NCBI GenBank assembly: GCA_937922785.1
Contig: CALAJQ010000018.1
Span: 121,855 to 185,854 of the forward strand
Source of the DNA: an uncultured Acidimicrobiales bacterium
GTDB lineage: Bacteria > Actinomycetota > Acidimicrobiia > Acidimicrobiales > SZUA-35
Length of the DNA stretch: 64,000 bases
Direction of reading: 5' to 3'
The notes under the pieces were generated by a model. The model had not been told where the DNA came from and made no database searches. It was given only the letters and a program-made list of their open reading frames with translations. Positions 9,189-60,128 of the stretch are shown piece by piece. Numbering within the stretch: position 1 is the stretch's first letter; each line of letters starts with the position of its first letter. Position numbers and translations under genes: made by a program.

Positions 9189-9265
9189 GGGCGCTTAGCT
9201 CAGTTGGCTAGAGCATCTCGTTTACACCGAGAGGGTCGGGGGTTCGAGTCCCTCAGCGCCCACCA
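9189..9265 (+). tRNA. tRNA-Val(TAC)
   Basis: GGGCGCT/AGCGCCC acceptor stem, D-arm TAGCTCAGTTGGCTAGAGC, anticodon loop TTTACAC, GGTTCGAGTCC T-arm, ACCA end. Confidence 0.97.
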
Positions 9266-10958
9266 GATAGTCCTTACTCGAACCCTGTCCCGCAAAGGAC
9301 GGGGTTCCTTCGTTTTCAGATTCTTTAGTCTGCGGGCTGGATAGCCAAGCCTCCAGCTCGCTGAATCCGCTGTCCAGTGCCTTAGCTCGGTCTCTTGCAG
9401 CCTCCAGCACATCGGGGTGGAGAAGTAGCTCATACTCTTCGCTTAGCTTCGCCCTGAGTTCGCCCTCTTCCCACCCAATGAACACGTTTTCAAAAAATGC
9501 TTGGTTGAGTTCACGTCGGAACTTAGCTCCGCTCTTCTTATAGAGCTTGGCGGGTTCGTCAGTCCTTGCGAGTGACCATTGGATGGCTGCTTCGATCGTT
9601 TCTAGCGTCACATCGGCCTGCACCAAGAGCGTTCGGGCGCTCGTCATTTCGTGTGTAATGCGAGTCTGTTCTTCCTTTAGGTGATCAAGTGATATGGCGT
9701 CGGCGTAGTGAGCCTGAAGCAGTTTTGTGCGTTCTGCTTTGAGCTGCTTCAGCCGCTGCTGTTGGCGGTCTTGTTCGTCGGAGCTATCCCTGAGGTGCGC
9801 AGTGATTTCGTTAACGAGGAAGTCTTCGAGTTGTTGGCGAGTCTCAGGGTCCAGGGTCATTCGTTCTTCAATGGCCTTGATCACGCCGATCTCGGCATCG
9901 GAGATCCTGACAGCACGCTTGTCGCACGTGTTCCGTTTTTCGTGTCGCCCTGAGCAAACGAAGTACTTGTAGGTCTTGCCGTGCCGATTCTTAGTGATAT
10001 GGATGATCATGCGGCTCTCACAGCCAATACAGAAGACAGTGCCTTTGAGGTAATGCCGGTGTGTTCGCTGCCGCTCGCCGGATTGCTTCTTGGCAGTTAG
10101 GACGTTCTGCACCTTGTTGAACAATTCTTCACTTATCAGTGGTTCGTGTGTGCCCTGGTACTTGACGCCTTTGTAGGTGACGATTCCGATGTAGTAATCG
10201 TTCTTCAACAGTCGGTTGAAGTTGCCAAGAGACAGCGGCTTCTCTGGCCTCTTTGGTCCACCAATTGAAGTCAGCCCCTTGTCTGTGACAGCCACGAGAA
10301 GTCTGCGGACTGACCACTCGCCGGTGGCGTACTGCTCAAAGGCCCAGCGCATGAGAGGGGCTCTAAATTCATCTAGTTCGACGGTCCGCACTTCTCGGTG
10401 ATTCTCGATTCTGCGGATGTTGCGGTAGCCAGTTGGTGCCTTGCCGATCGTTCCACCAGCCATGGCCTTCTGCGTGGTGCCCTTAACGACTTCGTTTGCC
10501 AGGTTACGGCTGTAGAACTCAGCGATTGAAGACATGATGCCGTGCATCAAGGTTCCGCTTGGGGTTTCGTCGATGTTCTCGGTGCATGAGACGAGAGTTG
10601 CTCCAGCTGTCTTGATTGCGACATTGATCTCAACGTCATCGACGCGATTTCTGGCCAGGCGATCGAGTTTGTGGACGATCACGAAGGTGGTTGGGTTGTC
10701 GGCCAGGTAGGTCAGCATTCGCTGTAGTTCTGGTCGGGCTGCGGACTTGGCGCTTTCACCGCGATCCACGAACTCATCGACAATAGTTGCACCGAGGGTT
10801 TCGGCCTTGCGTTCGCAGGCTTGCCTTTGGGCTGGAATAGAAAATCCTTCTTCTCGGCCTCCACGTTCAGCCTGTTCCTTTGTCGAAACTCTTAGATAAA
10901 AAACGGCCCGCGTGGTGCCGTCAAATTCAAGTTCTCGACCACCCTGATCGTCGGTCAT
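9222..10958 (-). CDS. Large serine recombinase (integrase)
   Basis: YLRVST catalytic motif, HKLDRLARN, recombinase domain, zinc ribbon (CxxC...C...C), coiled coil; last 13 codons lie antisense to the tRNA. Confidence 0.95.
   Translation of the reverse strand: MTDDQGGRELEFDGTTRAVFYLRVSTKEQAERGGREEGFSIPAQRQACERKAETLGATIVDEFVDRGESAKSAARPELQRMLTYLADNPTTFVIVHKLDRLARNRVDDVEINVAIKTAGATLVSCTENIDETPSGTLMHGIMSSIAEFYSRNLANEVVKGTTQKAMAGGTIGKAPTGYRNIRRIENHREVRTVELDEFRAPLMRWAFEQYATGEWSVRRLLVAVTDKGLTSIGGPKRPEKPLSLGNFNRLLKNDYYIGIVTYKGVKYQGTHEPLISEELFNKVQNVLTAKKQSGERQRTHRHYLKGTVFCIGCESRMIIHITKNRHGKTYKYFVCSGRHEKRNTCDKRAVRISDAEIGVIKAIEERMTLDPETRQQLEDFLVNEITAHLRDSSDEQDRQQQRLKQLKAERTKLLQAHYADAISLDHLKEEQTRITHEMTSARTLLVQADVTLETIEAAIQWSLARTDEPAKLYKKSGAKFRRELNQAFFENVFIGWEEGELRAKLSEEYELLLHPDVLEAARDRAKALDSGFSELEAWLSSPQTKESENEGTPSFAGQGSSKDYLVGAEGLEPPTLSV
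9241..9284. other. Predicted attL of the integrated element
   Basis: Inverted repeat GGTTCGAGT (9241-9249) / ACTCGAACC (9276-9284) centred on AC 9262-9263; CCAC core (9260-9263) shared with the right end. Confidence 0.7.
9280..9316 (+). terminator. Intrinsic terminator for the tRNA, supplied by the element
   Basis: GAACCCTGTCC-CGCAAA-GGACGGGGTTC hairpin followed by CTTCGTTTT. Confidence 0.7.
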
Positions 10959-11623
10959 GTCGCCTCCAGGAGATGGACCGCTGCTGTCGGTTGGTTCCTT
11001 CTGAAGGTCATGCCAGACGGGCCAGCAGGGTAGCGGACAGCGTGACGGGGAGCGATCCGTTGGCGCCGCTCGATTAGTCCGATCTCCTCAAGCCTGCGGC
11101 GCATGGCGACTTGGCTGACGTCAAAGGCGTTAGCTAGAGCTGCAAGATCATGAACACCTTCTCCCCAAAGACGCTTCACCCAGCGCTTCGGCATCAGTAG
11201 ACAAGCTGCGAAGTAGTCGCAAATAGCCTCCATCTGACGATTTGCATCAGACCGACTTCGAACCTCCTTGTAGGCGGAGGCGAGTTGGGGCGCATCGAGA
11301 ACATGCTTCATTTCATGAGCCAGAGTGAATCGCTGTCTGACTTCAGCCTCGTCGCTCCGTATCGAAATTTGCCATGACCCTGCACTCCATTCTGTGACAC
11401 CCGAAGCTTGGAGTTTGCTGTCTTCCATCACAGTGATACGGGGAAGCTTTGAAAAGGCGGCTGTATCGAAGAAAGGACTTGAATCGCCAAAGTGCATACG
11501 GACACGCGCTGCCTGAAGCTCTGCCACTCGGTAGGCCTCGTGGACTTGGATTGATCTCCTCGGCATGAGGGCTCTCAAGCCCGACACGAGACTGCCCTTC
11601 GTTTGTTGGGTTGTTCTTGTCAT
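10955..11623 (-). CDS. ImmA/IrrE family metallopeptidase (anti-repressor)
   Basis: RQRFTLAHEMKH, E..CDYFAACLLMP, FDVS..AM..RL motifs; ATGA-coupled to xre and integrase. Confidence 0.92.
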   Translation of the reverse strand: MTRTTQQTKGSLVSGLRALMPRRSIQVHEAYRVAELQAARVRMHFGDSSPFFDTAAFSKLPRITVMEDSKLQASGVTEWSAGSWQISIRSDEAEVRQRFTLAHEMKHVLDAPQLASAYKEVRSRSDANRQMEAICDYFAACLLMPKRWVKRLWGEGVHDLAALANAFDVSQVAMRRRLEEIGLIERRQRIAPRHAVRYPAGPSGMTFRRNQPTAAVHLLEAT

Positions 11624-11991
11624 CTTGCTCCTCCTTCCGAGTTTGGTTTGTTGCTTTTCTTCGTGATTCGCTTTACAGCTCTCTCAACGGCTTCAATCTG
11701 GTCGTCTTCTAGTTCGTATTTGGCCCTGAAATATGTCGGCAGCGATGGGAGGCCGGGGCCGACACCGTTGGTTTGCCATGCCAGTTCGTATAGATCCTCT
11801 GGCTCAACTTCAAGAGCCTCGGCGAGTTGGTTCAAAATCTCAGCTCTCGGCTCATCGACTGCACCGTCCTCAAGCCTGTAGATGTGAGAACGGGCGATTC
11901 CAGTTCTACGGCTCAGCTCTACGGCGCTGATTCCAGCTTCAGTTCTGATTCGTCTGAGGGCTTGCCCAAAGGCTTCTGTCATGGTGAGCAC
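11620..11991 (-). CDS. XRE family HTH repressor (ImmR-like)
   Basis: FGQALRRIR..AGIS..ELSRRTGIARSHIYRLE.G HTH. Confidence 0.9.
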   Translation of the reverse strand: MLTMTEAFGQALRRIRTEAGISAVELSRRTGIARSHIYRLEDGAVDEPRAEILNQLAEALEVEPEDLYELAWQTNGVGPGLPSLPTYFRAKYELEDDQIEAVERAVKRITKKSNKPNSEGGAR

Positions 11992-12008
11992 CTTTCACTT
12001 ACTTGATG

Positions 12009-12041
12009 TGTCTATTGTCCCATCCAATGGGACAATAGACA
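12009..12041. promoter_or_regulatory. Palindromic operator overlapping the xre promoter
   Basis: Perfect 15-bp IR TGTCTATTGTCCCAT-cca-ATGGGACAATAGACA; minus strand TTGTCT-N17-GACAAT promoter-like. Confidence 0.8.
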
Positions 12042-12076
12042 AGGTTGACTTTGATGTGGAATCGTCAACGCTCCGC

Positions 12077-12661
12077 TCAGCAAGCGTCGAAGACATAGAC
12101 ACCACCATCTGCCCAGATCGTTTCTAGATCGGCGCTCATGTGGGCTCCGAGCGCCTCGTAGTCGATGCTCACGAACGGTCGTATCCATTCGACACCGAGT
12201 TCTTCCGGTCGCATTCCAAGATCGTCAATCATGTCGGCCGCATACTCAGCTAGGTCCTTCCAGTGCCCGCGGTATCGTTCGGTGAAGGATGACAGCTCGT
12301 CTGCTTCATCCATGATGGACTGGACCCAATGCCCGAAGGCTGGTCCATGCTCGACTATGCCTGCGGCAACTTCTGCGATACGGCCAATCGACTCATACTC
12401 GTGCGGGTTGAATCCGCCGAAGCCTTGATAGTCGTGGATGGCCCACTCTTCGGCTGGTCCGGTTACTGATCGCTTTAGTATTGATTGAATCTCGTCTGCA
12501 ATGTGATCTTCGCCGAGCGTTGCGTCAATCCAGTCGCCTGTCAGGTATCCAGCGTTGTAGTCTCCCAGACTTCTGACGAACACTTCAGCATGCCCATCCG
12601 GAACCTCCTGTTCTTGTCTTTCGTCACCTCCCTCCAGGGGGATCTTGTTTTCAATGGTCAT
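12077..12661 (-). CDS. ardA: Antirestriction protein ArdA
   Basis: Highly acidic; YNAG.L.G.WID, EEWAIHDY.GF, IDYEALG motifs. Confidence 0.88.
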   Translation of the reverse strand: MTIENKIPLEGGDERQEQEVPDGHAEVFVRSLGDYNAGYLTGDWIDATLGEDHIADEIQSILKRSVTGPAEEWAIHDYQGFGGFNPHEYESIGRIAEVAAGIVEHGPAFGHWVQSIMDEADELSSFTERYRGHWKDLAEYAADMIDDLGMRPEELGVEWIRPFVSIDYEALGAHMSADLETIWADGGVYVFDAC

Positions 12662-12687
12662 CTTTAGTTCCTTTCTTTGTTAGCTCT

Positions 12688-13692
12688 TTAAGCAGCCCGA
12701 CGGCTTGGGTTCGGCTGACCTCTCGCTTGATCCAGTCGTTCACGGGCAAGAGCTGCGAAGTCGGGGTTGAGTTCAATCCCTAGCCAGTGCCTGTTCAGCC
12801 GTTCGGCAGCGACGCCTACGGTGCCAGATCCAAAGAACGGGTCTAGGACGATTCCTGGCTTCCAGCTGGTGGATGGGCAAGTGCATCTCTGTTCGAGTTT
12901 GTCGGTCACGGCGAGTGCGCCAAGACCTTTGGTCCGCTCCCGGGTCCAGGGGGATCCGCATGATGCGCAGACGCGTTCAGGGCAAGCCGCCAGTAGGGGA
13001 GTCCGAACCAGGCTTTCTGGGAAGGTCGCGAAGTGAGCTCCCCGGAAGTTAGAAGTAGCTAGCTGCCACACGTCACCCGGATTCTTGCCTAGCGGATGTC
13101 CGGTGAGCCCGCCTGCCTTCAGCGCCTGAAGGCCTCTGTTGTCACCGGCTAGTGGGCCGACCCAGGCCTGGGGCATCTGGCTGTGTGAGCGGCTCTTTGA
13201 GCGCTTCGACCGGTGGGGCACTCTAACGGCATCGAGATCGAAGAAGTAGTCCTTTGAGCGGGTCAGAAAGTAGACGTACTCATGCGTGCAGCTCAGCCTG
13301 TCTCGGACGCTGTTGGGCATCGGATTAGTCTTGGCCCAGATCACCTTGTTGCGAACTATCCACCCGTCGCTAGCGAGCTTGAGCAATAGCCGTTCCGGTC
13401 CGAGCAGCAGACCCTTGGCTGGGGCTCCACTCCTTGAGTCACGTGAATAACTGTCGCCGAGATTGAGCCAAACCGACCCGGTTTGCTTCAGTATTCGGGC
13501 AATCTGAATGAAGGCTCGTTGCATCTCGGTTGCCCAGCCTTCGATATGATCTTCGAGCCCGATTTGCTCCTTCTTGCCATAGTTGCGGAGCCGAAAGTAG
13601 GGCGGACTCGTTACCACCACGTCTACCGATTGATCAGGTAGGTCAGCTAGTCGTTGCCTTACATCTCCTATGAGTATTTGATTCGTTGTCAT
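12688..13692 (-). CDS. Orphan N4-C/N6-A DNA methyltransferase (beta class)
   Basis: VTSPPY motif IV, HFATFP, VLDPFFGSGT motif I, GIELNP. Confidence 0.93.
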   Translation of the reverse strand: MTTNQILIGDVRQRLADLPDQSVDVVVTSPPYFRLRNYGKKEQIGLEDHIEGWATEMQRAFIQIARILKQTGSVWLNLGDSYSRDSRSGAPAKGLLLGPERLLLKLASDGWIVRNKVIWAKTNPMPNSVRDRLSCTHEYVYFLTRSKDYFFDLDAVRVPHRSKRSKSRSHSQMPQAWVGPLAGDNRGLQALKAGGLTGHPLGKNPGDVWQLATSNFRGAHFATFPESLVRTPLLAACPERVCASCGSPWTRERTKGLGALAVTDKLEQRCTCPSTSWKPGIVLDPFFGSGTVGVAAERLNRHWLGIELNPDFAALARERLDQARGQPNPSRRAA

Positions 13693-14672
13693 TGTTCACC
13701 TCCTTCGATGAGTTCAGTTTCATTTCCCGCGACTGCCACACTAAAAAGCTGCGAGTGCCAATCCGGCATGTCCTGGATAAGGCTTCTGAGCATGCCGGCC
13801 CTGTCTTGGTCAAGTACTACCCAAACGACGTTTGGGAATGCCTCGCCCTGTTCTTGTTCCACTCCAGCGTCGAAGGCATCCGCATAGGCTTGGAGTTTCC
13901 GCCTGAGCGTCGGGGCGTGCTCAGTGCTGCGGTCAACTTCTATGAAGCTCGCTTGTTCGTACACTGCACCGCTAACGCGGACGAAGGCGTCAGGCTTGAG
14001 GATCTTGGCGCCGCGGCTGTCAACTGTTTGACGCCAGGCAGCCGGTTCACCTTGGAAGCTAATCAGCTTGATCCCAGAGCCTCTCTCACTTTCTCTCAGG
14101 CGAACGTAGACTTCGGCGACCGCCAGCACGTGGTCCTGAAACTGTGGTGATGGTTCCCAAGGTCGTCGTCGCCGAGAGCCGCCCGCTGGCCCCGGCGAGC
14201 TAAGCAGCGCCTGGCCTGCCGCATCTAGCGCGTATACGAAGCCCGATGAGCCAGCGTGCACTCCGCCTATCCGCCGGTCCAGTCGTTTGATAAGACCGGA
14301 GTCTGAAAGTCTTCTCAGAACTCGTCGACTCTTTCGAGCCTGAGTTTGAACCGATCCTGAATGAAAGTGCAGCCGTTGGATCTGCGTTGCCTGAAGAAGT
14401 CGGACCCGGTCTAGATCTAACAAGATCTTGATGTCGCGTTCGGAGACCAGTGCTCGCATGCGAGCAACATGGGCTGCCGTTGCCCGGCGGCTCACAGTGG
14501 TACTCCTAGGGACATAAGAGTCCTTGGCGCTACAGGGCACCCGGCCACCTGTATCCAGGCGAAACGCTTGAGGCTCACCGAGGCGAGCGGCAGTGCGATC
14601 GGTACGCCCCTCATGTTGACTTTCTCCGGCGACCACCCGACTTGGCTTCGCCCCCTGGCGACCGTCGGTCAT
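13689..14672 (-). CDS. Replication-relaxation family protein (true start may be downstream, ~14490)
   Basis: QIQRLHF, R.L.RL...GLI.R, HVLAVAEVYVRL, KPDA, FIEVDRSTE motifs. Confidence 0.85.
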   Translation of the reverse strand: MTDGRQGAKPSRVVAGESQHEGRTDRTAARLGEPQAFRLDTGGRVPCSAKDSYVPRSTTVSRRATAAHVARMRALVSERDIKILLDLDRVRLLQATQIQRLHFHSGSVQTQARKSRRVLRRLSDSGLIKRLDRRIGGVHAGSSGFVYALDAAGQALLSSPGPAGGSRRRRPWEPSPQFQDHVLAVAEVYVRLRESERGSGIKLISFQGEPAAWRQTVDSRGAKILKPDAFVRVSGAVYEQASFIEVDRSTEHAPTLRRKLQAYADAFDAGVEQEQGEAFPNVVWVVLDQDRAGMLRSLIQDMPDWHSQLFSVAVAGNETELIEGGEQ

Positions 14673-16743
14673 AGAGCTCGGCTTCGACCTGGGCTCCCTC
14701 GAGCCCGTAGCGGAAGCGACTTATGGCTCGGACCTTGGCAGGGTCAACTAGTGGCTTCGGTAGCTCCAGCGTTCGTATGCTGCCAGGCCCGTTTGCCGAC
14801 ACTGTACGAACGTAAGCACCGTAGGTCGGAAGCCCCTGAAGGTCTGGAGCTCGCAAGCCACCGCCAAGGTGGTTAGCTAGAACTGCGCCGTCCTCAACGT
14901 TCGTGCGGAAGACCACCCGAGATCTAGCATTTGCCAGGACGGCGGCTTTGGTAGAAGGCGACAACTGGCCGAGATGCTGATGAGCGATTGTGAGGCCGAC
15001 TCCAAGGCTCCGAGCCTCTGCCAGAACGTCGGATAAGTCGGTTGTTAGGTGAGTGAATTTCTGGAACTCATCGACGTAAACCATGACGGGGTGCCGCCTG
15101 TCTGCATTGATCGCGCTGCGGGCTTGTGTGGCTCGCCAGACCTCGGCCACGACTAGACTTCCGATCAGTCCAGACACGTTCGGGCCCAACAAACCCGGCC
15201 TTAGTTGAACCAGAAGAATCTTGCGCTGGGTAAATACGTCGTTAACAGAGAACGTTGGTTCGCTCTGGCCAAGTGTTCGTCGAAGCGAAGCGCGCATCGC
15301 GAATGGGCGAACCTTGTTGAGCACTGGAGAAACAACTTGAAGTCGTTCGGCAGTTGACAGCGAGTTGAACCACGTCCAAAACTCACCGAGCTGAGGGTCG
15401 TCGGCTAGACGACTAGTAGCCGTCCTGCGAAAACGCTCATTGGTGAGGAGGGCTGGAAGCTCGGCCAAGGTTAGCTTGGGGGAGCGGGCCAGGGTCAGGA
15501 CAGCGGTGTTGAGGACGTCCTCAGTTCTCGGCCCCCATGACTCCTTGTTTAGTGACTTGATTAGAAATACAACCGAGTCAGCGCTGAGTTCGGCCGAAGC
15601 TGACGCCCTGAGAATATTGAGGCCGACAGGCCGCTCTATGTCTGATGGATCTAGAACAACAACATCACAAAGACGGTGTTGTGGAATACGGGCCAGAACG
15701 TCGTCAACTAAGTCGCCTTTGGGTTCGATCAGGATTACGCCCCGGCCCGCTTCGATGTCTTGGACCGCGAGCCGAGCGATGACCGTGCTCTTCCCAGATC
15801 CGGTCGGGCCAACGATGTGCAAGTGTTGCAAGGCATCTTTGGGGCTCAGTGTCACCAGTCCACCTCTGCCTGCATAGGTTGCCTCACCGAGAACACGGGC
15901 GCTATCGGCTCTTGAAGGACGCAGCTCTGAGGCGGCAAATGGAAGAACTCGGGTTCCGCTGTAGGTAACGCCTCGAACAACTGGTGCACCTACCGGCCAT
16001 GCGATGAGTTGCGACAGTTCAGCTGCATTCAGCGCGCATGGCCATTCAAACCAGGGCGGCCGCATTCCTTCCATGCGCCGATCAACAAACCACGAAGGCC
16101 AGAACCGACGACGAAGCCTGACGCCCGGTCTGCTAATGATGTTCAATGCTCCCAAAGAGGCGCTCATGAGTCTGAGCTGACGACTGGAGCCGTGAGCGCG
16201 AACAGCTATACGACCAACAGCGCCAACTACCGGCGAAACCTGTTTCCTCGCAATTTCTGTGGGGGTGAAAGATTGACGTCGGTCGGTTCTAGAGACTTCA
16301 GGTAGGCGGTAGGGGAGAAGCGGGCCAACTACCCATTGCATCTCTAAATCTTCGCCGCTCCGAAGCGTCTCAGTCGTCGCAAGAAAGGTAGCAGCTAAAC
16401 CCTGAGCCCGATCCGTGTGAAACGGCAAACGCACGCCACTCATTCCTAGCTCTATAGCCCTGCGTTTCGTCTCGGACTGGTTTCCGCTGGTTGGCTTTTT
16501 AGTATCGATCGCTGCTACGCCAACTGCTGGGAGATGGGCTCGAAGTAACGAAACCAGCGAGGTCGCGGTTCGCTCATCGGCTGTGATCGTCCAGCAAACT
16601 TCACTTGGCGAGGCTTTCACGGAAAAGACGATGTGTGGGACTCGCCCTCTTGGTTGAGCACTCAGCCCAACGAGGAAGGACTCGATCTGATCAGCATCTA
16701 GATCGTTAGGAAAGCTAAGCCTGAAAGCAGTCATGCCTTTCAT
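14611..16743 (-). CDS. VirD4/TraD-like coupling ATPase
   Basis: Walker A GPTGSGKS, EPKGDL, YVDEFQ Walker B, EARSLGVGLTIAHQ. Confidence 0.9.
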   Translation of the reverse strand: MKGMTAFRLSFPNDLDADQIESFLVGLSAQPRGRVPHIVFSVKASPSEVCWTITADERTATSLVSLLRAHLPAVGVAAIDTKKPTSGNQSETKRRAIELGMSGVRLPFHTDRAQGLAATFLATTETLRSGEDLEMQWVVGPLLPYRLPEVSRTDRRQSFTPTEIARKQVSPVVGAVGRIAVRAHGSSRQLRLMSASLGALNIISRPGVRLRRRFWPSWFVDRRMEGMRPPWFEWPCALNAAELSQLIAWPVGAPVVRGVTYSGTRVLPFAASELRPSRADSARVLGEATYAGRGGLVTLSPKDALQHLHIVGPTGSGKSTVIARLAVQDIEAGRGVILIEPKGDLVDDVLARIPQHRLCDVVVLDPSDIERPVGLNILRASASAELSADSVVFLIKSLNKESWGPRTEDVLNTAVLTLARSPKLTLAELPALLTNERFRRTATSRLADDPQLGEFWTWFNSLSTAERLQVVSPVLNKVRPFAMRASLRRTLGQSEPTFSVNDVFTQRKILLVQLRPGLLGPNVSGLIGSLVVAEVWRATQARSAINADRRHPVMVYVDEFQKFTHLTTDLSDVLAEARSLGVGLTIAHQHLGQLSPSTKAAVLANARSRVVFRTNVEDGAVLANHLGGGLRAPDLQGLPTYGAYVRTVSANGPGSIRTLELPKPLVDPAKVRAISRFRYGLEGAQVEAELYDRRSPGGEAKSGGRRRKST

Positions 16744-18014: not shown

Positions 18015-18015
18015 G

Positions 18016-18507: not shown

Positions 18508-19662
18508 ATGGCGAAGACAACAGACAACAGGCCTCTGCAAGCACTGGACTTCGTAGTCCCAACCGAAGATGAACTAGTCGCCGAACTGAAAACCATCCGC
18601 AGAGAAGGGATCGCAAGGATCAGCCAGATCCGGACGCCGTCCCTGGAGACGGCTGTCCGCTGCGCAGGTCACGCCGACGCCGTTGAACCGGTGAGTGCTT
18701 ACATGATTGAGGGTCTGATTAGAGAGGCGGTAGTTGAGGTTGACGGGCCTGATCAAGACATCGTCGGCGTTGTCCTCGGACTGGCCCCAGGTCGCCGCGG
18801 CGACAAGCCATCAGACCTGCGCCGCTCAGCTGCTGAAATCGTCGGCACCGGAGTCGAGCACTTCCGTAAATCCAAAGAACCAGACCTGCTGATCCGGGTA
18901 GTCCAACAAATTCTCTCAATCATCCACGCCTACCGGATGCGCCTGGCCCGACTGAAGATGGACAAAAGAACACCAGTGGGATCACGGCTAGCGGTTGAGT
19001 GGCTCAAGAGGTTCGAGGCCTACTACCGAATCTGGTCACCCATCTCGGGTCTAGGCAACGACCTGACAGCCGCCCGGCTAACGATGCTCAAGGAATACAC
19101 CGAGGAGGAGTTGTACGTCGAGCCAGATGGAATCCATGATCTTCCAGACGGGCAAAACTGGGATGCAGACAACTACGTTCGCTGGGCTTGGAGTCACTAC
19201 TGCCGGATGCTCCACTACGAGCGCCTATTCGATATTGAGTTCGGCGGGCTTTGGTTGCTCCCGGATGCGCAGGCCGAAACCAACCTGGCTGACGCAATCC
19301 ATCAGCTGAGACTTCACGTTCCACAAGACGAGCAATCTGACTCCCTTGTTAGATCCACAATGGCCGAGATCCCGGGCCAAGAAATTCACCAATTCCTCAA
19401 ACACGTACCCCCCGACGATTACCTCATGGGTATTCATGAGGACTGGCAAGACTTCGCCCGGTCGTGCGAGTGCACATGGGACTCGGAAAAGAAGATTGGT
19501 AGGTCCCACTTCCCGATAGCTCCCAACTATCCAGGAATTGACGCCGGCTGCCCCGTCCACAAACTTCTAAGCCTCTGCAACGACTACCTACTGATCGTCG
19601 ATGACGCCTGGGACGAGATAGCGGATTGGTACGATGAAGCACCGTTTCCTCAACGCGCCTAG
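18508..19662 (+). CDS. Hypothetical protein, possible N-terminal HTH-like domain
   Basis: 384-aa ORF divergent from the small-gene operon; LRRSAAEIVG.GVEHFRK segment. Confidence 0.75.
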   Translation: MAKTTDNRPLQALDFVVPTEDELVAELKTIRREGIARISQIRTPSLETAVRCAGHADAVEPVSAYMIEGLIREAVVEVDGPDQDIVGVVLGLAPGRRGDKPSDLRRSAAEIVGTGVEHFRKSKEPDLLIRVVQQILSIIHAYRMRLARLKMDKRTPVGSRLAVEWLKRFEAYYRIWSPISGLGNDLTAARLTMLKEYTEEELYVEPDGIHDLPDGQNWDADNYVRWAWSHYCRMLHYERLFDIEFGGLWLLPDAQAETNLADAIHQLRLHVPQDEQSDSLVRSTMAEIPGQEIHQFLKHVPPDDYLMGIHEDWQDFARSCECTWDSEKKIGRSHFPIAPNYPGIDAGCPVHKLLSLCNDYLLIVDDAWDEIADWYDEAPFPQRA

Positions 19663-31097: not shown

Positions 31098-31117
31098 CAA
31101 CTCAAGGAGAGGCTCTG

Positions 31118-48712: not shown

Positions 48713-50380
48713 CTACTCGGGTGCTTTCGGTTCATTGAAAGCGGCGACGAGCCCCACTAGATACACTTCGAGTTCCTGAATAAACTCTTCGGCCAACTCT
48801 GACTGAGTCTTGCTCATCGCTTTGGACATTCTTTGAGCTTCGGGTCTGTCCGAAAAGGCGACAAGGGAGGGGCGGATCTCGCTTGCTCTCGACAACGTGA
48901 ACCTAATCGCTTTGCCGTTCTTTCTGCGATCCAGCCATGAGAACAGATCATGATGCCGTCTCGGTGCAATTCCCATGAAGGGTTCAAATGTTGGCTTGCT
49001 GCCATTTCCAGTGGGCGGAGCCTTCTCGACTAAGTTGACCTCGCCGCCAAAGAAGTGCTCCGCTTTGCTCTTCGGATAGGGCTCAAGGTAGACGACCCTC
49101 GTTACGCCCGATCCAATAATGTGTCGGGTGCATTCGTGGCAGGGATGAGTAGTTACGTACATCGACGTCCCATCTGTGCCAGCCTGTCTTCTGGCCGCAC
49201 TTAGGAGTGCCGACATCTCTGCATGCATAGCAGGATCAAACTCGACCATTGAAAAGAATTCTGCAAGGCGCACGTCGTCTTCTTCCATCAGGACTTTTAC
49301 AAGTCGATTAAGGTCTTTGGGCTTGCTGACGGATTCCAAGAGGCTTGCACCGGCAGGACTCGCAGTAAGTTCTTGCGAGTTCATCAATCGCGACACGAGA
49401 TCGGTGAATATGCGCTGTTTTTCGGCGCCTGAGATGTCTGATTCCTCGCGAAGTGATGAATCAGACTTGTCGGTGCCATATGTCAATTGACCGCCGCGGG
49501 CGCGCGGCATATCGTTCCGTCCGGTCGCCACGAGGTCTTCTCCGCTGTATAGCGATGCTCCAACTCGCCTTGGTAGGGCGGTGCTCTGAGATGCGGCCGT
49601 GAATGCCTGGGCTATACCGCACTCGTCTTGCTTCGCGATTCCGAACGGGTCCGAAAAAATTAATCGGACCAATCGATCGATATCTTCCAATACTGCGTCG
49701 GAGCTGCTCTCTCCGTTTATGAACAGGTCTCCTTCGAAGAATGTGTCTTCGATGCTAAGTCTTTCAATCGGTTTCGTAGAGACCTCATCGAATTGATCCC
49801 TGTACTCGTGTGGCCAGCCTCTGTCCCGGAGCATCAGATCTTTCGCTAGCTTGCTGGCGATCTTGGACACCTTTTTATCAGACATGTCCGCGTTGCTGGA
49901 CGTGATGTCCGACTCAAGATCTCGAATTATGTTCTGCCTGCGCGATTGCTCCGAACGAAACACTGAAACTAGGAAGAACAGGCTGCCGAACAGGTTTCGG
50001 TAGAGTGACACTTCAGCCTCGTGCATCAATGACTTAATCAGGAATGCTCTGCCCCGCCTCCCCTCAGATAGCTTCACGTTACGGCGATTCTCAGCAATCG
50101 CATTCACGCCTAGCCTTGCGACGCCGCTCTTTTCTTGGGTTCGAATCCAGTCACCCTTGCTCATGAGGACGTTCCTTCGAACGTACTCTTGCGACTTTGA
50201 GTCCATTGTTCCTCGGGGATCAGGAACAGCCGTTGCCAACAGCTCGCTGAGGCGAACTACCTCAAGCTGATAGCCAGCGCGCTCAAGCGACGCGCGAAGT
50301 CCTGATTCGACCATGTCCAAGTCAGTACCCATGGCTTTAACCGTCGCAAAATAGAGGTCCGGAGATTCGTGTTCGGTCAT
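48713..50380 (-). CDS. Anti-phage dCTP/dCMP deaminase (AvcD-like: P-loop-kinase-like + deaminase domains)
   Basis: N-terminal MGTDL, IKSL.H..EV..YR..FG..F, L..RD, DTF...D.FI; C-terminal VGA, G.ND.P, HAEMSAL, TTHPCHEC.RHII..G...VVY.EPYPKS. Confidence 0.88.
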   Translation of the reverse strand: MTEHESPDLYFATVKAMGTDLDMVESGLRASLERAGYQLEVVRLSELLATAVPDPRGTMDSKSQEYVRRNVLMSKGDWIRTQEKSGVARLGVNAIAENRRNVKLSEGRRGRAFLIKSLMHEAEVSLYRNLFGSLFFLVSVFRSEQSRRQNIIRDLESDITSSNADMSDKKVSKIASKLAKDLMLRDRGWPHEYRDQFDEVSTKPIERLSIEDTFFEGDLFINGESSSDAVLEDIDRLVRLIFSDPFGIAKQDECGIAQAFTAASQSTALPRRVGASLYSGEDLVATGRNDMPRARGGQLTYGTDKSDSSLREESDISGAEKQRIFTDLVSRLMNSQELTASPAGASLLESVSKPKDLNRLVKVLMEEDDVRLAEFFSMVEFDPAMHAEMSALLSAARRQAGTDGTSMYVTTHPCHECTRHIIGSGVTRVVYLEPYPKSKAEHFFGGEVNLVEKAPPTGNGSKPTFEPFMGIAPRRHHDLFSWLDRRKNGKAIRFTLSRASEIRPSLVAFSDRPEAQRMSKAMSKTQSELAEEFIQELEVYLVGLVAAFNEPKAPE

Positions 50381-52698: not shown

Positions 52699-55600
52699 AT
52701 GGCTTCCAAGCGCTCTGTTTCATTCGTAATCTTCGTGGCTTTTGCGCTTCTGGCGTCGCTCGCTTCACCCGTCGGGGCGCAAACTGTCCCGTCGGATGAT
52801 GGTGAAGGTTTTGAGATTCCTGCTGGCTCAAGTGAAGGGCCCGGGCTAGAACCCCTGCCAGCTGAGGCTGCGGCTGCGGAGCTGTCCTCACCGGTTGGCA
52901 ACGTTGATCAGACTCCGCCGACGGTGTCAGATGAAATGGGGTTCATTGAGTCGACCGAGGAAGTTCCGGTCGTACTTGCTGGCGAGCAGATTGGTGAGCG
53001 TGGTGTTGCGAGCGATGTTTGGGACACGACCGATGGCGGTCTGGTTGTTCATGCCTATGGTGATCTGACCTACTTTGATGACGGCAGCGGGGGGATGGCG
53101 CCGATCGACCTGAAATTGTCTCCGATCAACGGACGCACCGATTGGTTCGAGACGACAGCCAACTCATTTGCAGTCAGGTTTGGGCCGATGTCGGGTGAGG
53201 GCCCGGTTGAGTTGACTCTTGCTGATGGTTCTGAAGTGAAACTGATTCCGACGGTTCCCCCTGGCCGTATTTCGAAGGTCGAGATGGAGGTCGACGCCGA
53301 GCTGGGGGTTGTTACCTATGTGGACGTGTTCCCTGGTGTAGATCTTCGCTATTCGGCGACTCCGACCGGGTTGAAGGAAGACATCATTCTCAATCGTCGC
53401 GGCAATGTCCCTCGTTTTGAGACGATCATTGAAGGAGTCGACCTTGACACTGAGTTGGACAGCGAAACAGGTCTGTTCCTGCCGATGGAAGCCAAAGGGC
53501 AGAAAGCTGTCGACCGTAAGCCCGGAAACGCAATCCCGGGTGGTGTCGCACTGGGCCAGCTCTTGATTGAAGACAGTAAGGGTGCGCCGATCGACAATAA
53601 AGATGCTGGTGCGGCCGTTGAGGTGACGAAGGGTCAAGGAAAGGGTGATGGCAACATTCGATCGGCTGTGTCAGTCGAAGTGTCTGAGCAATGGCTGTCT
53701 GGGTTATCTGCAGACGACTACCCGATTGTCTTGGACCCTGGTTACTACGCGGCTTGGGCTATCGCTACCGGAAACGCTGCTCCGACGTCCAAGTGGCATG
53801 GTTCAACAGGAACCTCTCACAACAATATCCACGTTGGCAACTCTCGTTCGCCGAGCGGGCCGAACGGTGACTCGTTTTGGCGGGCTCGGATGCAGTTCGA
53901 GGTCGGGCTGTATGGCGGCACGCTGTCTGGTCTTGCGGACTTGGGCTGGGGAGTTACGTCTGCAAAGGCGAAGCTTCAGTTTGCAGCTGGCACGCAATCG
54001 ACCCGTAATGTATGGGCCGGATGGGACGACGCCGCTCCCTATGAATGGCCTGGAATGTATCCCGGACGGTACGCCTCGCAATATGACACAGCGCCAGTAG
54101 GCGGCTCGACGGGCGGCAATGCAGGAACTGCGCATGAGTGGAATATCCCGATCACCAACGTCGCTCGGAAGTGGCTGAACGAGGAAGTCGACCAGCCGTG
54201 GCTGACGCTCAAAGGCGACGAAACGCCAGGTGTATATACATACAAGCGGTTCAGTAATGTTGCGATTGAACTGTTTCTCCGCAAAAAGCCGACGCGGCCT
54301 GCACCCGCGTCACCCGCTGACAATCTCGTCACTGCTGATGAGACTCCGACTCTCACCTCAACCCTCTCGTCGCCTCAAGAGACAGGGCAACAGGTTGCCT
54401 ATTGGTTCAGGATCTCCACTGCTCCGGGGGTTGACAACGGCCAGATAGTCGCCGATTCGGGTTGGACGGGCCAATCTTGGACAGTGCCAGAAGGAATTCT
54501 GCAGGACGGCGTCAAATACTATTGGAATGTTAAGTCAATCGACACCGTCTACGGCATCTACAACAACACTATTCCGTCCTCGGTTCGTTCTTTCACACTG
54601 AATCGGCGGCTCGGAACCGGCGACCCAACTCAGGCGTATGAATCATTCGGGCCAGGCACTGTCAACCTCGGCAACGGCAACTACGTAGTGTCGGTCGGTT
54701 CATCTGGCTTCGATACTTTAGGCGGGTCCATTTCTGCAGGCTTGACGTTCAACAGCCAACTAAAGCAGGACCATGGTCTGATCGGCACCTATTCAAGTGA
54801 TCCCAATCACAACGGCCTCGTCGATAACGGTGAAGTTCCGTGGGTCAAAAGGATCGAACGACCTAACTTCGATTGGGGCGAAGAATCTCCATCTGGTGCT
54901 GGAGTAGGTCAGGTCGACTGGTTCGTGACGCATTGGGACGGGTTCATCCAAGTCCCCGCAACTGGTGTTTACAAGATGGGTGCCACCTATGATGACGGCG
55001 CCAAGATCGTGGTCGGCGGGACCACGGTATTGAACAAACTGAACGGGACGCCATCTACTGCCGACTATGGCACCTCGAAAACGTTGACAGGGGGCCAGTT
55101 CATCCCGATCCACATTGAGTATCGGGAGAAGACCGGTTCAGCGCGATTCAAGCTACTGATCAAATGCCAATCTGGTGGCTGTACTTCGACTTACCCGCAA
55201 CTGGGAACCAATTGGTCTCTTGAAGTGCCCTCTGACTGGTTGAGTCCAGAGCCGTCAGTCCTCCCAGAGGGCTGGTCGCTAGGAACTTCGGCGTCGGGCG
55301 GCCGTGGCTGGATTGAAGCCAAAACCGTAGGCAAAGACGTGGTCCTGAAAGACTCGTCAGGACTCTCGTCACGCTTTGAGTATGTATCTCCTGGCTCGTG
55401 GAAAGCCCCGAAGGGTGAGTACTCGACTCTAACCAAACCAAGCGGAGGCGAATACACGCTCCAAAGCGATGACGGCTTCACCTACGTTTTTAGCGCTGAC
55501 GGCAAGCTTGACTCGACAAGTTCACCACTTGATATCGGCAACCCAACGCTTCCTCAGGTCATAAAAGATTCGAACGGTCGAGTCTCGGCTGTGAAGGACC

Positions 55601-58600
55601 CTGTATCGGGTCGTCAGATGACATTGGTCTATTCGGGTTCCGGTATCTGTCCGACCCACCCATGGACTCCAACCGCATTCGATCCCGCACCGAGCGGGAT
55701 GCTATGCCAAATCAGATATCCGGACACGACCAGCAATATCGAAACGGCAACGACGATTTGGTACAAGAACGACCTGATTTCACGGATCTGGAATCCAGGG
55801 GTCGAACAGTACGACTTAGGCTGGACGAACGGCCAACTTGTCTCAGTGGTCGATCCGCATGTAAACGACGCGTTCCGGTACGGAGTTGCAGGAGTTTCTG
55901 CGGCGGATGCTCCCTGGCAGATGCAGTACACCTCCGACCGGCTATTCAAAGTGATTTCTCCGCTGCCAGCGTCTGGCCAGCTGAAATCAGCAGCCCAAAT
56001 CATTTACGGCACCAATCAGGCAACGCTTCAGACTAAAGGGCTGGCATCAACGAACGTCTACGGAGCAACGCGCACTGTTCACTTTGAATCAGACACACTG
56101 CGCTCAACGAAAACAGTCGGTGCAGACGGAACGGTGGTGGAACAGGGCTGGAATCCAAACGACTCGCTACAATGGAGCAAAGACGCCGCAGGTCGAAAGA
56201 CGACTTATCACTACGATCCGCTTGATCGACTCACAGACGTATATGGTCCTGCGCCAGGGTCTTGCTTTGGTGGCAATCAGTTGCCGAATGGAAGCTGTTC
56301 GAACCCGAGTGTTGCTCATGTGGAAACAGCCTATGAAGAAGGGCTCGGAGGGCTAGCGGTCAGCGTATATGGCAACCGGAATTTGGCTGGTAGTCCGACG
56401 AAATTCTCATTCGACTCCGACACTTCGATAGACACAGCTGGCCTACCCGTCGGCTCCGATTTCTCGGTCCGTTACACAGGCAAGTTTTACACGACTGGTG
56501 GGGCGAACTTTGACACATTCACGGCCTGGTTCCACGGTGGAGCACGGATCTACGTTGACAACGTCGAAGTGTTCGACCAGTGGGAACAAAACAAGAGCTG
56601 GAATCCAGCAGCGGTTGGGAACGTGACCCTGACCGCGGGTTGGCACGACATCCGGATCGATTATCAACCAAAGACAGACGGCACGCGAGCCTTCTATATG
56701 CGGTTGGGAGGATCTCCCGGGGCAGGAGCACCTTTGGCCGGTACAGCTTTGTCGCCGAGCTATGACCTCGCGACGTCAAACACCGCACATGATGATGGTG
56801 GCTCTGCACCATCGATGACTAACAAATCGACTTTCGGAGAGCCTTGGCTTGGTTTGGCGACCCAATCCAGAGTTGATCCCAACGGGCTGAACCTGACAGC
56901 GAACATGATTTACGGGGCGACTTATAATCGACGCGAGACTAGATCGATGCCTAACGGCAATCAATGGACCTATCAATGGTATGGACCGAGCGAGGCGCCA
57001 GTAGCTAACACGTGTTCCAACGCAGCGTCTTCCCAAGCTGGTATGGCGAAGACCCGCTACTACCAGAGCGCTGCGAACCGTCCTGACACGTACGTGTACG
57101 ACATAATGGGTCGACAAGTGGGTCATAAGTCTGGCTTCGCTGACTGGAGCTGCACCTACTTCGACACGCGAGGCCGAACTTCGCAGACAGACCAACCTGG
57201 TAACCGGATCTCCTACTACTCCTACGCGCCCAGCAACAACCCGATGTACACCCACATCGGCGAGACTATTAACGGGACGAATACGGGCACAACGGTGATC
57301 AAGACCGACCTCCTCGGACGCGAGGTCGAGTATCGGGACGAATCCGGCACCGTCACCACAACCAGCTACGACCGGACAGGACGGGTAACGACTTCAACTA
57401 CAACCAAATCGGGTTCAAGTATCACAAACGGCATCACGTACGACCAATTCGGGCGAACCCAAACCCAAACAATAAACGGCGCCGCGGCGGCAACAACCAG
57501 CTATAACACTGACGGTGAGACCTCGACTATCACCTACAGCCACGGACCAGGGGTGACGACGACCGCTACGATCAGCCGTGACAACCGCCAGGGCCAAGTC
57601 TCGGGTGTCATCTATGGCCTTAACGGCAGCACTCTGACCGAGTCAGTGTCAAGAAGCCAGTCCGGCCGAATCAAATCTCACACAACCAACGGTTCTGCCT
57701 GGAGCTACAGCTACGACGCAGTCGGCCGACTCAAGACCGCTGTGAGGGGATCAGACAGCTACTCTTACAACTACGATGCCAACTCAAACCGGACATCAGC
57801 GAACTTGAACGGATCCAGCGTCTCCTACCAATACAACACCCTCGATCAACTTGCCTCATACACAGGCATGACAGGGAGTATCGGCTATGACACGGCCGCT
57901 AACACGATCGGTGTCAACGGGTTGACCTTGGGTTGGGACGCCAGCGGCCGCAACACCGGGATCACGAGTCCGGGCGTCAATGTCAGCTACATCCGAGACT
58001 CAAGCGATCGGGTTAAGCAGCGTTCCGACAACGGCGTCCTCAGCACCTACCTATATGACAGCTCTGCAGACGCACCGATCGGAATCACACTCCCCGGAAG
58101 CGTCAACGTTGCAGAATGGTACGTCCAACTACCAGGCGGCGTTCTCCGAACCGTCAAGCCGGCAGCACCGGACAGCTGGCTGTACCCGAACCTCCACGGT
58201 GACACGCTGGCCACCGTCGATACTGCAGGTCAACTGACTGCGGGTCCGTTCGTATACGGGCCATACGGAGAGAAGATCGGGTCGACCATGGCAAACCAGA
58301 CCGCCATCAACGCCGACTATGGCTGGGTAGGGCAGCACCAGAAAGCCACAGAAACACAACTGCAGAACATCATCCAGATGGGGGCGCGGCCCTACCACCC
58401 CGAGCTTGGACGGTTCCTATCGGTCGACCCCGTCGAAGGCGGAACACCTAATGATTACGCCTATGTAACTGATCCGATAAACAGTTATGACCTCAACGGG
58501 ATGTGGGGAATACCCAATCCAATCAAGGCCGTCAAAAAGGCAGCAAAGGTGGTTGGCTCAACTGCGGCGTCGGTTGGAAAGTTCGTGGACAAACACAGCG

Positions 58601-59037
58601 GCACCATTGCCACTGGTCTTGCGATCGCGGCAGTAGTGGTCTCGGCTGCTACTCCTGTGGGAATGGTGATACTGGTAGCTGCTACTGCGGCCGCGGCATA
58701 CGACACACAAAAGGTGTGTAGGAGCGGCGATGGCGTCGGATGTGCACTCGGCGTCGTAGGAACCGTGACCGGAGGCACGGGTGGACTATTCCAGCGAGTT
58801 GGTTCAAAAGTTGCGAAGTTTGGAAGGGTCAGGCTTGCGGCTGGCCAGTTGACCGGTTCCAAGTTTTCCGGTGTTCGCAAATTCCTGCCGAGACTCGGGA
58901 GGATTCCGGGAAGCTTCAACCGGATCGGCGGCAGGGCACTCGAACGGGCGGGAACCTCTCTGACAGGCCTCGGCAATCGGTTGACAAGACGGGGCGCAGG
59001 AGTTGCCGCGGGTGCTTATGCCTGGTCCTTCCGATAA
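52699..59037 (+). CDS. Secreted Rhs polymorphic toxin with two PA14 domains and a hydrophobic/basic C-terminal tip
   Basis: Signal peptide; GLKEDIIL; PA14 motifs (FDWG..SP...F...WDGFI...DDGAKI; FSVRYTG...GGARIYVDN); YD repeats; [31 protein letters not shown]. Confidence 0.92.
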
Positions 59038-59471
59038 TGAAAGATAGCGTCGCCTTCCACGGCATCCAGAATGCACCAAAAGCTAGGTGGTTTCACAAAC
59101 GTCGGCTTCGCAAGATTGCAAAGCTCAACACCCCCGCAGTTGCCGTCTATGCCCGGGTGCCGCTCTTTGTTCGGGTCAATATGGGATTTGGTTTGTTCCC
59201 ATTAGTTCTCGCAATTCATCATCGGGGAGGAAAAGAACAGGTTTCCATCACTGAGCCCAACCCCTGGGACTCACTGACGATGATCCCAGTTTCTGAAGGC
59301 ACGTGCAATGTTCATCTGCGTGCTGGACAGCGCAGCACCGAAATCGAACGAGTACTCCAGGGTGACGAGGTTCTGCTTATCTATGCACGTGCAACTTTCG
59401 GGTTCAGGTCGAAGAAGTCCTATGTGCACAATGTGTACTGCGGAATTGTTGATGCTAGCTATTTGGAATAG
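59037..59471 (+). CDS. Putative immunity protein of Rhs2
   Basis: TAATG coupling to the toxin stop. Confidence 0.6.
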   Translation: MKDSVAFHGIQNAPKARWFHKRRLRKIAKLNTPAVAVYARVPLFVRVNMGFGLFPLVLAIHHRGGKEQVSITEPNPWDSLTMIPVSEGTCNVHLRAGQRSTEIERVLQGDEVLLIYARATFGFRSKKSYVHNVYCGIVDASYLE

Positions 59472-59732
59472 CTACGAAGAAGCCAAGAGCTGGCTTACTG
59501 AAGAGAGGTCGTCCATCTCGGGCGAAGTGGGCCTCGGGTCTGACGAAGGGTGCGTATCGGGTAACTGGTGTATGTCATGTTGTGGAACATGTCGATACAG
59601 ATTCTGGTGTGCGGGTCAGGTTGGTGGTGCGAGACAAGCCTGATCTTGAGCGTCTTGCGAAGGCGGTTGTGGCTGTGGCGCTTGAAGAGGCCCGGCGTAA
59701 CCAAGACTCAGCATCGAGCAAGTAGATCCGGT

Positions 59733-60128
59733 CTAAGTCCGGGGGACTACTCCAGCCTCAACCAGGTACTTTTTTAATGTGGCTGGGTGGACTCGGTAAG
59801 TCTTAGCTAGTGAGCTGAAAGAGCTGCCAGAGTCGTATCTTCGTGCGGCTTCTTCGATCTGGTCTGAGTCCATGACAGGGTATCTAGGTCTCATCGCAAC
59901 GTTGTTTTTGCGTAGCAATGCCGTCGTTGTTTTGCGGTTGATCCCGTAGCTCCTAGCTAGGTCCACTATCTGAGATCCAGCTAGGTATTCCTGCATTAAG
60001 GCAGCCACCTTCTCGTCGCTAAGCCGTGTCTGACGTTGCACCGGCCCTGACTGATCATCGATTTCGCCGTGTTCACTACTGTCAGTCTTCTGAGGTACAG
60101 GGTGTGAGAACCGCGCGGTTAGGACCAC
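59733..60128 (-). CDS. Tandem helix-turn-helix protein at the element's right end (predicted detached integrase C-terminus)
   Basis: Two resolvase-like HTH repeats (EYLAG..IVDLARSYGINRKT; RYDSG.SFSSLAKTYRVHPAT); GTG at 60128 lies on the att core. Confidence 0.75.
   Translation of the reverse strand: MVLTARFSHPVPQKTDSSEHGEIDDQSGPVQRQTRLSDEKVAALMQEYLAGSQIVDLARSYGINRKTTTALLRKNNVAMRPRYPVMDSDQIEEAARRYDSGSSFSSLAKTYRVHPATLKKYLVEAGVVPRT
60109..60128. other. Predicted attR (CCAC core 60125-60128)
   Basis: Same core and codon phase as attL; adjacent palindrome AACCGCGCGGTT; followed by a hairpin that could be the native tRNA terminator. Confidence 0.6.

Follow-up and report, generated by a model that had tools for sequence, protein, structure and literature searches.

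A serine integrase gene with a predicted attachment site inside its coding sequence: a candidate recombination-made fusion to a double helix-turn-helix protein

This report concerns a stretch of 64,000 nucleotides (the window) of contig CALAJQ010000018.1, assembly GCA_937922785.1, from an uncultured Acidimicrobiales bacterium; all coordinates are those of the window, and the genome is referred to as G000. The window carries an island that has the gene of a large serine recombinase (LSR), here also called the integrase, at one end, next to a tRNA-Val gene, and an open reading frame (ORF) for a double helix-turn-helix (HTH) protein at the other. An earlier note on this DNA claimed an in-frame fusion of the integrase with the double-HTH ORF on excision, and a shorter integrase with a tRNA-derived tail while the island is integrated. 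We believe that this structural claim is well supported by the boundaries of the island, by the phase conserved in the family and by one relic of the attP type.

The closest described system is the tyrosine integrase of Mx8: attP lies inside int, integration gives the gene a new 3' end, and the prophage form is active with altered properties (excerpts of PMC6070905). As in Mx8 IntP/IntX, attP at the present locus lies within the integrase ORF, and integration at a tRNA locus swaps the C-terminus, provided that the boundaries are as we infer them below; unlike there, the enzyme is a serine recombinase, and the locus thus works like the Mx8 switch without being a member of it. Integration of Mx8 reportedly replaces 112 residues by 13. 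In contrast to Mx8, what integration removes here is a bipartite HTH domain that folds separately and is attached through a flexible linker; its ORF persists at the far end of the element.

The earlier note named BPs-type immunity as the analogue; Mx8 is closer, since there attP is in int itself. In BPs-type mycobacteriophages and in prophages of M. abscessus attP is located inside a gene whose product is truncated at attL, sometimes beside a tRNA read towards it (excerpts of PMC8092301). In that type the repressor is split, the integrase is a tyrosine recombinase and an ssrA-like tag is lost, whereas here the recombinase itself is split. The XRE gene of the island (11620-11991) is intact and distant from the att sites, and the -AA that closes ssrA-like tags is absent from both C-termini (..TLSV, ..VPRT).

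Engineered fusions of a recombination directionality factor (RDF) to the C-terminus of an LSR change the direction of recombination (excerpts of PMC12286644; also PMC5737554). The predicted protein resembles them in carrying a second protein that a flexible linker attaches to the C-terminus of the LSR; unlike these man-made constructs, which favour attLxattR, it would be natural, confined to the attP state and provided with a bipartite DNA-binding partner. Archaeal integrases of the SSV1 type are tyrosine recombinases with attP within int; when the element enters a tRNA gene, int is partitioned and no complete copy of it is left, whereas here the catalytic protein stays whole.

Among serine recombinases, phiC31, Bxb1, A118, TP901-1, SprA and TnpX share with the present system the Resolvase domain, the Recombinase domain, the zinc ribbon with a coiled coil and the short core. 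In these characterised systems attP is found beside the gene and is not known to lie in it; they usually insert at protein-coding genes or at intergenic sites. In the main text of a large LSR survey (PMC10083194) the word tRNA does not occur. In the open literature we found no LSR with attP in its own gene and no natural switch between an integrase and a DNA-binding domain; the supplementary att tables of PMC10083194 may hold cases. The principle of attP inside int is thus known for a tyrosine integrase and is apparently new for serine integrases.

The two ends of the island

The features of the two ends are as follows.

9189-9265, plus strand: tRNA-Val(TAC) (ARAGORN), complete when the island is integrated; its last 6 bases are the attL core CCAC and an island-supplied CA
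9260-9263: attL core CCAC (GTGG on the gene strand), the same tetranucleotide as at attR
9222-10958, minus strand: LSR gene (Pfam); the integrated state gives 578 aa, of which the island encodes residues 1-566
9264-9293: P arm of the predicted attP, placed by the architecture of LSR att sites; the last ~10 integrase codons (..AGQGSSKDYL), holding CAGGGTT
59733-60128, minus strand: double-HTH ORF, 131 codons from the core GTG (Pfam HTH_7; AlphaFold2, AF2)
60095-60124: P' arm of the predicted attP; the first ~10 codons of the HTH ORF (VLTARFSHPV)
60125-60128: attR core CCAC, the same as the attL core
60129-60214, plus strand: original downstream flank of the tRNA (B' side of attB), paralogous to the flank of tRNA-Val(GAC) on contig C15

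The tRNA-Val(TAC) gene is the single tRNA that ARAGORN finds in the window, and the integrase gene runs into it on the opposite strand. Codon V566 is the GTG at 9263-9261; the next 12 codons and the stop are antisense within the tRNA (residues 567-578, GAEGLEPPTLSV), and the C-terminus in the integrated state reads ...GSSKDYLVGAEGLEPPTLSV, followed by the stop. On this tail, and on the place of V566, the sequence and ARAGORN agree with the earlier note. Its statement that excision restores a complete tRNA does not hold, because attL already carries the entire tRNA: the gene is whole in the integrated state, the island giving the final CA of its CCA.

The integrase has a resolvase-type catalytic domain with the serine motif, a Recombinase domain and a zinc ribbon with a coiled coil, as LSRs do. 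The Pfam matches are Resolvase (1.4e-32, residues 18-168), Recombinase (5.9e-12) and Zn_ribbon_recom (3.1e-9), and the catalytic-site residues R23, V24, S25 and T26 are invariant in a family alignment of 30 sequences. The AF2 model shows the catalytic domain, the recombinase domain and the zinc ribbon, with two long helices (371-418 and 424-448) inserted in the ribbon as a coiled coil; after a final helix (515-540), residues 541-575 have a confidence (pLDDT) below 50 and are predicted to be disordered.

At the right end the minus-strand frame reads ...WLFS/VVLTARFSHP...PRT and a stop, with the core GTG at 60128-60126; the sole ATG of the listed ORF (60185) falls outside the island. The ORF matches HTH_7 at residues 87-122 (3.9e-7) and, more weakly, HTH_58 at 42-82 (0.0025, below its cut-off). 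Its AF2 model (pLDDT 85.7) consists of a disordered linker (residues 1-37) and two three-helix bundles, 38-74 (helices 38-49, 54-61, 65-74) and 88-124 (helices 88-99, 104-111, 115-124). Two three-helix units joined by a short linker, found both in this model and through the HTH_7 match, are what makes a bipartite double HTH. Fold matches are weak, none reaching E<=1e-3; the best is the Tc3 transposase 1u78 (E 7e-3), and SETMAR, Mos1, IstA and Pax are also among them.

The right boundary at 60128 is independently supported by a paralogous tRNA-Val locus of the same genome. There tRNA-Val(GAC) (contig C15, L017 1489-1563) directly precedes CTGAAACAACCACTTCGTGG... (CTGAAACAACCACTTCGTGGATTGTTTC...), and this flank is 90% identical to window 60132-60214 (83 bases, E 5.4e-25). 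The sequence to the right of 60128 is thus the usual tRNA-Val downstream sequence of this genome, and the similarity begins at the core. The predicted empty site is ...GCGCCCA-CTGAAAAC..., a tRNA without encoded CCA, as in its paralogue. As a weaker check than the paralogous flank, 60128 ranks first among 491 GTGG sites (120 kb upstream, gene strand) for the dyad match to the P arm, with 14/28; the next three sites score 13. In 40 relatives nothing matches the first 1.3 kb of the right flank, and the relatives' loci that match farther right carry no tRNA; the empty site could not be compared with island-free genomes because the relatives do not conserve this flank.

A scan of 59500-60600 gave 0 promoter-like and 0 terminator-like sites. 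The right flank folds as a GC hairpin (z -2.6); the HTH ORF may or may not be transcribed from there. We also note a GC-rich palindrome, GTTTCGGCC-TAGC-GGCCAAAAC, a possible terminator or small repeat element, at 60150-60182 in the tRNA downstream flank; it recurs after the C15 tRNA-Val(GAC) and at C18:88242-88277 and C29:17676-17702.

The far ORF is open from its GTG in the phase of the integrase, CCAC is present at both junctions, and both ORFs read the GTG as a codon, all as the earlier note had it. The joined frame of 696 aa, 566 + 130 residues without a stop across the core, was likewise confirmed. Because no stop intervenes, this fusion of the integrase and HTH-HTH is the only integrase that a circle cut at this core can encode, and the circular form almost certainly would encode it.

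The two arms are related by an inverted repeat whose integrase half is CAGGGTT and whose HTH half is AACCCTG or CACCCTG; it encodes ..(A)GQGS.. and ..S(N/H)P(V)... The P arm also contains a Shine-Dalgarno-like AAGGA 7 nt before the core GTG. In the arm and linker synonymous changes outnumber non-synonymous ones, and the ratio of non-synonymous to synonymous rates (dN/dS) of the linker is 0.26-0.60 in 7 of 9 pairs (about 30 codons each). This excess, together with the motif GRLSNP, which is internal or doubled in some HTH proteins, points to translation of the linker and arm region.

Related integrases, HTH genes and searches for the fused form

The family was surveyed with the 120 best database homologues of the integrase (P0002-P0120 among them), which are 46-67% identical to it. 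The tail (L/M)V-x3-4-G(L/I/F)E(P/L), antisense to the acceptor and T arm of a tRNA, is present in the same phase in 113 of them. Four more (P0030, P0048, P0082, P0112) reach the ...LV junction and continue into short non-tRNA tails; the remaining homologues comprise one with a degenerate tRNA tail and two that end before the junction. The integrase frame is open through the variable, disordered tail to the junction in 118/120.

The loci tell the same story at the DNA level. All 12 genome loci fetched (L059-L070) run past the homologous region, and 8 of these overlap an antisense tRNA (Val, Ala, Ser, Arg, Glu). Among 80 metagenome loci (L074-L153), 57 overlap an antisense tRNA, 15 leave the contig and 8 stop without a called tRNA; the 57 span 18 anticodon types, with Ala, His, Val, Glu, Leu, Arg, Met and Asp among them. 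The ORFs always enter the tRNA antisense in one phase. Because the homologues end in tRNA-antisense tails, the family is on record only in integrated form, and the database C-termini (..GLEPPT..) are, judged from their sequence, integration products. For attB, the conserved acceptor and T arm of the tRNA apparently provides one half-site and the non-conserved flank the other.

The genome has a second integrase of the family (G000:C9:45383-47107, L155; 572 aa, 38% identical), which reads ...KISLV/HPPGLEPGT into tRNA-Lys(CTT), beside tRNA-His; a profile search finds no HTH-HTH partner for it elsewhere in the genome. A separate observation concerns the integrase-side arm at 9264-9289, which has 22/23 bases in common with locus L061 (G496:C31), gggttcgagtaaggactat[c/t]tgGTGG; the two integrases are only 46% identical, yet both are in tRNA-Val(TAC). 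For integrases without a detected HTH partner (G097, G638, G346, G496 and C9), a dyad scan for far ends over up to 80 kb gave noise-level values of 12-15/28.

The HTH ORF has 2594 matches in a representative library, many of them multi-HTH repeat proteins and many proteins of 120-170 aa. A motif V(V/D/E)L..(R)(F/Y/L)SNP, which aligns with the first ten codons of the window ORF, is at or near the start in 18 of 21 short single-match proteins picked among 150 listed of the 2594. In 401 genomes of the same class, the HTH is found in 21, the integrase (E<=1e-60) in 19 and both in 8. At the phylum level the integrase is found in 23/401 genomes and the HTH in 9/401, a tally that includes the unpublished genomes G513 and G640.

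The integrase and the HTH are on one contig in G000, G068, G181, G209 and G324, and G245 was added by a profile search. In each of the first five the order is HTH, then integrase, with both on one strand and 17-51 kb apart. Both junctions are available in five pairs (G000, G068, G181, G209, G245): the core shared by attL and attR includes GTGG (4-8 bp, gene strand), GTG is an in-frame codon on both sides in 5/5, and virtual excision is in frame in 5/5. The target is tRNA-Val(TAC) in G000, G068 and G181, tRNA-Ala(GGC) in G209 and tRNA-Ala(CGC) in G245. The conserved phase that the earlier note proposed to look for in related elements is thus found in all five pairs.

The inverted repeat behaves less uniformly. 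LSR att sites are expected to be short (~40-50 bp), with a tiny shared core and imperfect dyad symmetry in attP. The dyad match of the virtual attP is 19/28 in G068, 14 in G000 (tied with another centre) and 13 in G209, and the best dyad is centred elsewhere in G181 and G245. The repeat had been described as centred on the AC of the core; the dyad centre falls instead on the final G of GTGG, which corresponds to the first C of CCAC, and it is the best centre in 3/5 elements only.

The HTH-HTH module is, as its occurrence suggests, an independent building block; it is not tied to the integrase role, because genes with the same motif stand alone without a nearby integrase. Arrays of them are seen at G226:C30 2902-13033 and G389:C117 65-7200 (also L021, L022, L024, L033, L040, L042, L045, L046), where 165-aa HTH-HTH genes recur every 3-4 kb, begin with QRVDL(W/E)G(R/Q)LSNP and follow a conserved upstream stretch ...aaacgttgtatttctgacaacgg/GTGGACC; no family integrase is nearby.

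A joined reading frame exists in G324. There a 377-codon open frame (G324:C82 30705-31835) joins the zinc-ribbon/coiled-coil half of an integrase to HTH-HTH, and at the junction ...GSHTDTLV is directly followed by EVIALLAKQ...HTH-HTH. Five database relatives of this integrase half (47-67% identical) all read ...TLV/ELRG(F/L)EPLT, antisense to a tRNA, at the same point; therefore G324 has an HTH arm in place of the tRNA arm, as in attP or at a junction in a tandem array. The surrounding 30705-32457, beside an intact G181-like element, is a small graveyard of element ends: besides the 377-codon joint it contains an HTH remnant of 69 aa (32194-32400) and a piece of integrase with a frameshift (31807-31992), which suggests tandem or repeated insertions at one site. 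The neighbouring integrase of G324 is a different gene, 96% identical to the G181 integrase and truncated by the contig end.

Further fused genes were sought in several ways. No protein of ~700 aa with a C-terminal HTH match is among 150 listed of the 2594 representative matches, and a search with the G324 relic for longer proteins gave 5 matches, all tRNA-tailed. The plasmid collections gave no relative of the integrase, and the HTH search there gave one unrelated stand-alone gene beside a tyrosine integrase; phages gave no HTH match and one partial integrase match (33%), with no family member. HTH pair-alignment scans of metagenomes and genome contigs found nothing. Long open frames at HTH matches in G620 and G744 were rejected as multi-HTH proteins or flank read-through; they are not integrases.

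The read data used are Logan contigs on window 4000-16000. The probable source is a DNA run that contains the attL stretch in full; another run of the same study has 31% of the words. The source-run contigs break inside the tRNA, and the loose ends at 9262-9265 are tRNAs of other organisms. The mean word depth is 52.9 for the left-flank contig (4000-9217) vs 43.2 for the island contig (9234-16000); this gap could reflect a part of the population without the island, or ordinary coverage noise. A complex prediction for integrase residues 290-565 with the HTH ORF scored 0.00 without controls and speaks neither for nor against binding.

The island as an integrative conjugative element

The stretch 9264-60128 reads as one integrative conjugative element (ICE) of about 50.9 kb, inserted by the LSR at the discriminator end of tRNA-Val(TAC). 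An integrase, a relaxase and a coupling protein are found inside defined ends at a chromosomal site, which is what marks an ICE. The genes upstream of the integrase are as follows.

10955-11623, minus strand: ImmA/IrrE-type M78 peptidase gene (Peptidase_M78 5.8e-16), overlapping the integrase start
11620-11991, minus strand: XRE-type HTH repressor-like gene (HTH_31 8.3e-13, HTH_3 2.2e-11)
12077-12661, minus strand: ArdA antirestriction gene (Pfam ArdA 5.4e-32)
12688-13692, minus strand: N6/N4 DNA methylase gene (N6_N4_Mtase 2.2e-44)
13689-14672, minus strand: Replic_Relax relaxase-like gene (Pfam 1.4e-39)
14611-16743, minus strand: type IV coupling protein gene, TraG/TrwB-like (TrwB_AAD_bind 4.6e-9, T4SS-DNA_transf, TraG-D_C)

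The first two form, with the integrase, an xre-immA-int operon in which stops and starts overlap, immediately upstream of the integrase. The long minus-strand operon of the island points to attL and in a circle would continue across attP. The Pfam scans of the island ORFs gave no VirB4/TcpF-type match, no search aimed at mating-pore genes having been made; large ORFs without a Pfam match are found at 18508-19662, 20352-22124, 26399-27553 and 33194-35325. The two 700-bp ends of the element have no 10-12-mers in common that could be arm-type sites (shuffled expectation 1.1 for k=10), and only three 10-mers are repeated inside these ends.

A second regulator of the island (28606-29775) is a single 389-aa protein in which an XRE-type HTH is fused to an ImmA/IrrE M78 peptidase domain. 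The cargo (37055-43929, 48713-50380, 52699-59037) includes ORFs of 1279 aa and 823 aa with DUF6443, RHS and PT-HINT, a cytidine-deaminase-domain protein of 555 aa and a PA14/RHS protein of 2112 aa, all of which resemble genes of the polymorphic-toxin type. Strand skew is strong in the 40-42 kb bin (GC skew -0.21, AT skew +0.37).

The proposed switch and its rivals

The explanation that we favour, with a probability of roughly 0.6, is an ICE whose attP lies wholly in coding sequence and whose integration cuts a 696-aa ORF for integrase and HTH-HTH. In the circle, the xre-immA-int operon would read through attP into a single protein in which ~60 flexible linker residues connect the LSR core to HTH-HTH. 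Integration would cut this ORF, leaving a 578-aa integrase with 12 tRNA-antisense residues, and would strand the HTH-HTH cistron at the far end, away from the promoter and from the AAGGA of the P arm. The element presumably still excises and the long form is then made; HTH-HTH would be expressed only when the element is excised, as a part of the fusion or possibly also by re-initiation at the GTG behind AAGGA. It is tempting to suppose that the tethered HTH-HTH modulates the recombinase, or represses or activates genes of the element, in the excised state only, and that its loss on integration would alter the behaviour of the enzyme, as in Mx8 IntP/IntX.

The RDF of an LSR is expected to bind the coiled-coil/zinc-ribbon region of the integrase and to enable attLxattR. 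A simple model in which HTH-HTH acts as an RDF in cis is unlikely, because RDFs fused by engineering to the LSR C-terminus drive attLxattR and block attPxattB (PMC12286644), whereas a circle would need the opposite direction. We favour a role in the integration-state enzyme or in the regulation of the excised element. The earlier note suggested that the two isoforms could set directionality or stability without a separate RDF; the HTH-HTH module, which also exists as stand-alone genes, is not bound to such a role. The broader proposal of a tRNA-targeting LSR family with directionality control built by recombination, where the circle makes the integrase joined to HTH-HTH, the integrated state makes the tRNA-tailed integrase and no separate RDF is required, we consider tentative and rather doubtful.

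Several observations weigh against the favoured explanation. The intact fused gene was found in 0/120 homologues (by the HTH profile), 0/12 genome loci and 0/80 metagenome loci. The contigs of the probable source run contain no circle junction, no joint to the right flank and no empty site, although contigs of this kind cannot show rare forms and this absence therefore speaks for neither side. The sole joined junction, that of G324, is a decayed relic that has lost the catalytic half and has a frameshift upstream. Beyond the class of G000 the HTH partner mostly went undetected: at the phylum level only G068, besides G000, has both the integrase and the HTH, and the profile search found an HTH partner in 1/5 further integrase genomes, with weak matches in 2. 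Conversely, 5 genomes have same-motif HTH-HTH genes without a family integrase on the contig, 2 of them without any at E<=1e-10, and one genus has arrays of stand-alone HTH-HTH genes in which a stop lies two codons ahead of the GTG and the DNA upstream is conserved. The linker dN/dS is 1.06 and 1.42 in 2/9 pairs. The junction peptides are encoded by the inverted repeat, and therefore their conservation may reflect the DNA site; the conservation of phase could likewise be partly frozen by att-site geometry and descent, and not selected.

Some of these points suit another explanation, in which HTH-HTH is an autonomous regulator that starts at the core GTG with the AAGGA of the P arm; integration would disconnect it from its promoter and ribosome-binding site, and the fusion would be a tolerated by-product. 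The switch would then act on the expression of a free regulator, which might be a factor for excision or transfer. The stand-alone genes, the arrays with their stop upstream of the GTG, the many database proteins of 120-170 aa that start at the motif (18/21 of those picked among 150 listed), the internal or double GRLSNP of some proteins and the spacing of AAGGA all agree with it. However, no stop separates the integrase from HTH in 5/5 pairs, and so every ribosome that finishes int in the circle makes the fusion; that 118/120 homologues are open to the junction is also unexpected if nothing beyond it mattered to the integrase. We regard this explanation as possible, although on balance unlikely.

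It is improbable that the island is fixed or decayed, or that its true right end is elsewhere, in which case there would be no such circle and the in-frame relation would have no present consequence. The missing junction and empty-site contigs would fit this, as would a core of merely 4 bp and relatives that lack the flank, so that no empty site was compared; but all three integrase domains are intact with invariant catalytic-site residues, the ORFs of the conjugation genes are intact too, the flank of the paralogous tRNA begins right at the core, and four other genomes have the same end structure. Mere chance, a 4-bp match and a 1-in-3 coincidence of frame beside an unrelated HTH gene, is the least credible account. 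The 4-bp core alone is weak, as the earlier note warned, and the linker extends only ~27 codons beyond the arm; yet 5/5 pairs are in phase with two target tRNA types and integrases 38-48% identical to that of the window, the G324 relic is joined at the same residue, and the HTH ORF has the same position and strand in every pair, whose sequences rule out one recent clone.

The choice of direction by LSRs is a central question both for mobile elements and for genome-engineering tools. The known answers need a separate RDF, which engineers copy by fusing the RDF to the integrase. If the favoured explanation is true, a natural fusion made and broken by its own recombination would be a self-contained, state-aware switch, and the Mx8 principle would extend to the other recombinase superfamily. 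The observation could matter for annotation, where database C-termini would be artefacts of the integrated state, and for the discovery of tools. The data point to a large, little-described group of LSRs at the discriminator end of many tRNAs, with the att site all in coding sequence; if the proposed switch is real, the same logic would operate in thousands of elements whose integrases have tRNA-antisense tails.

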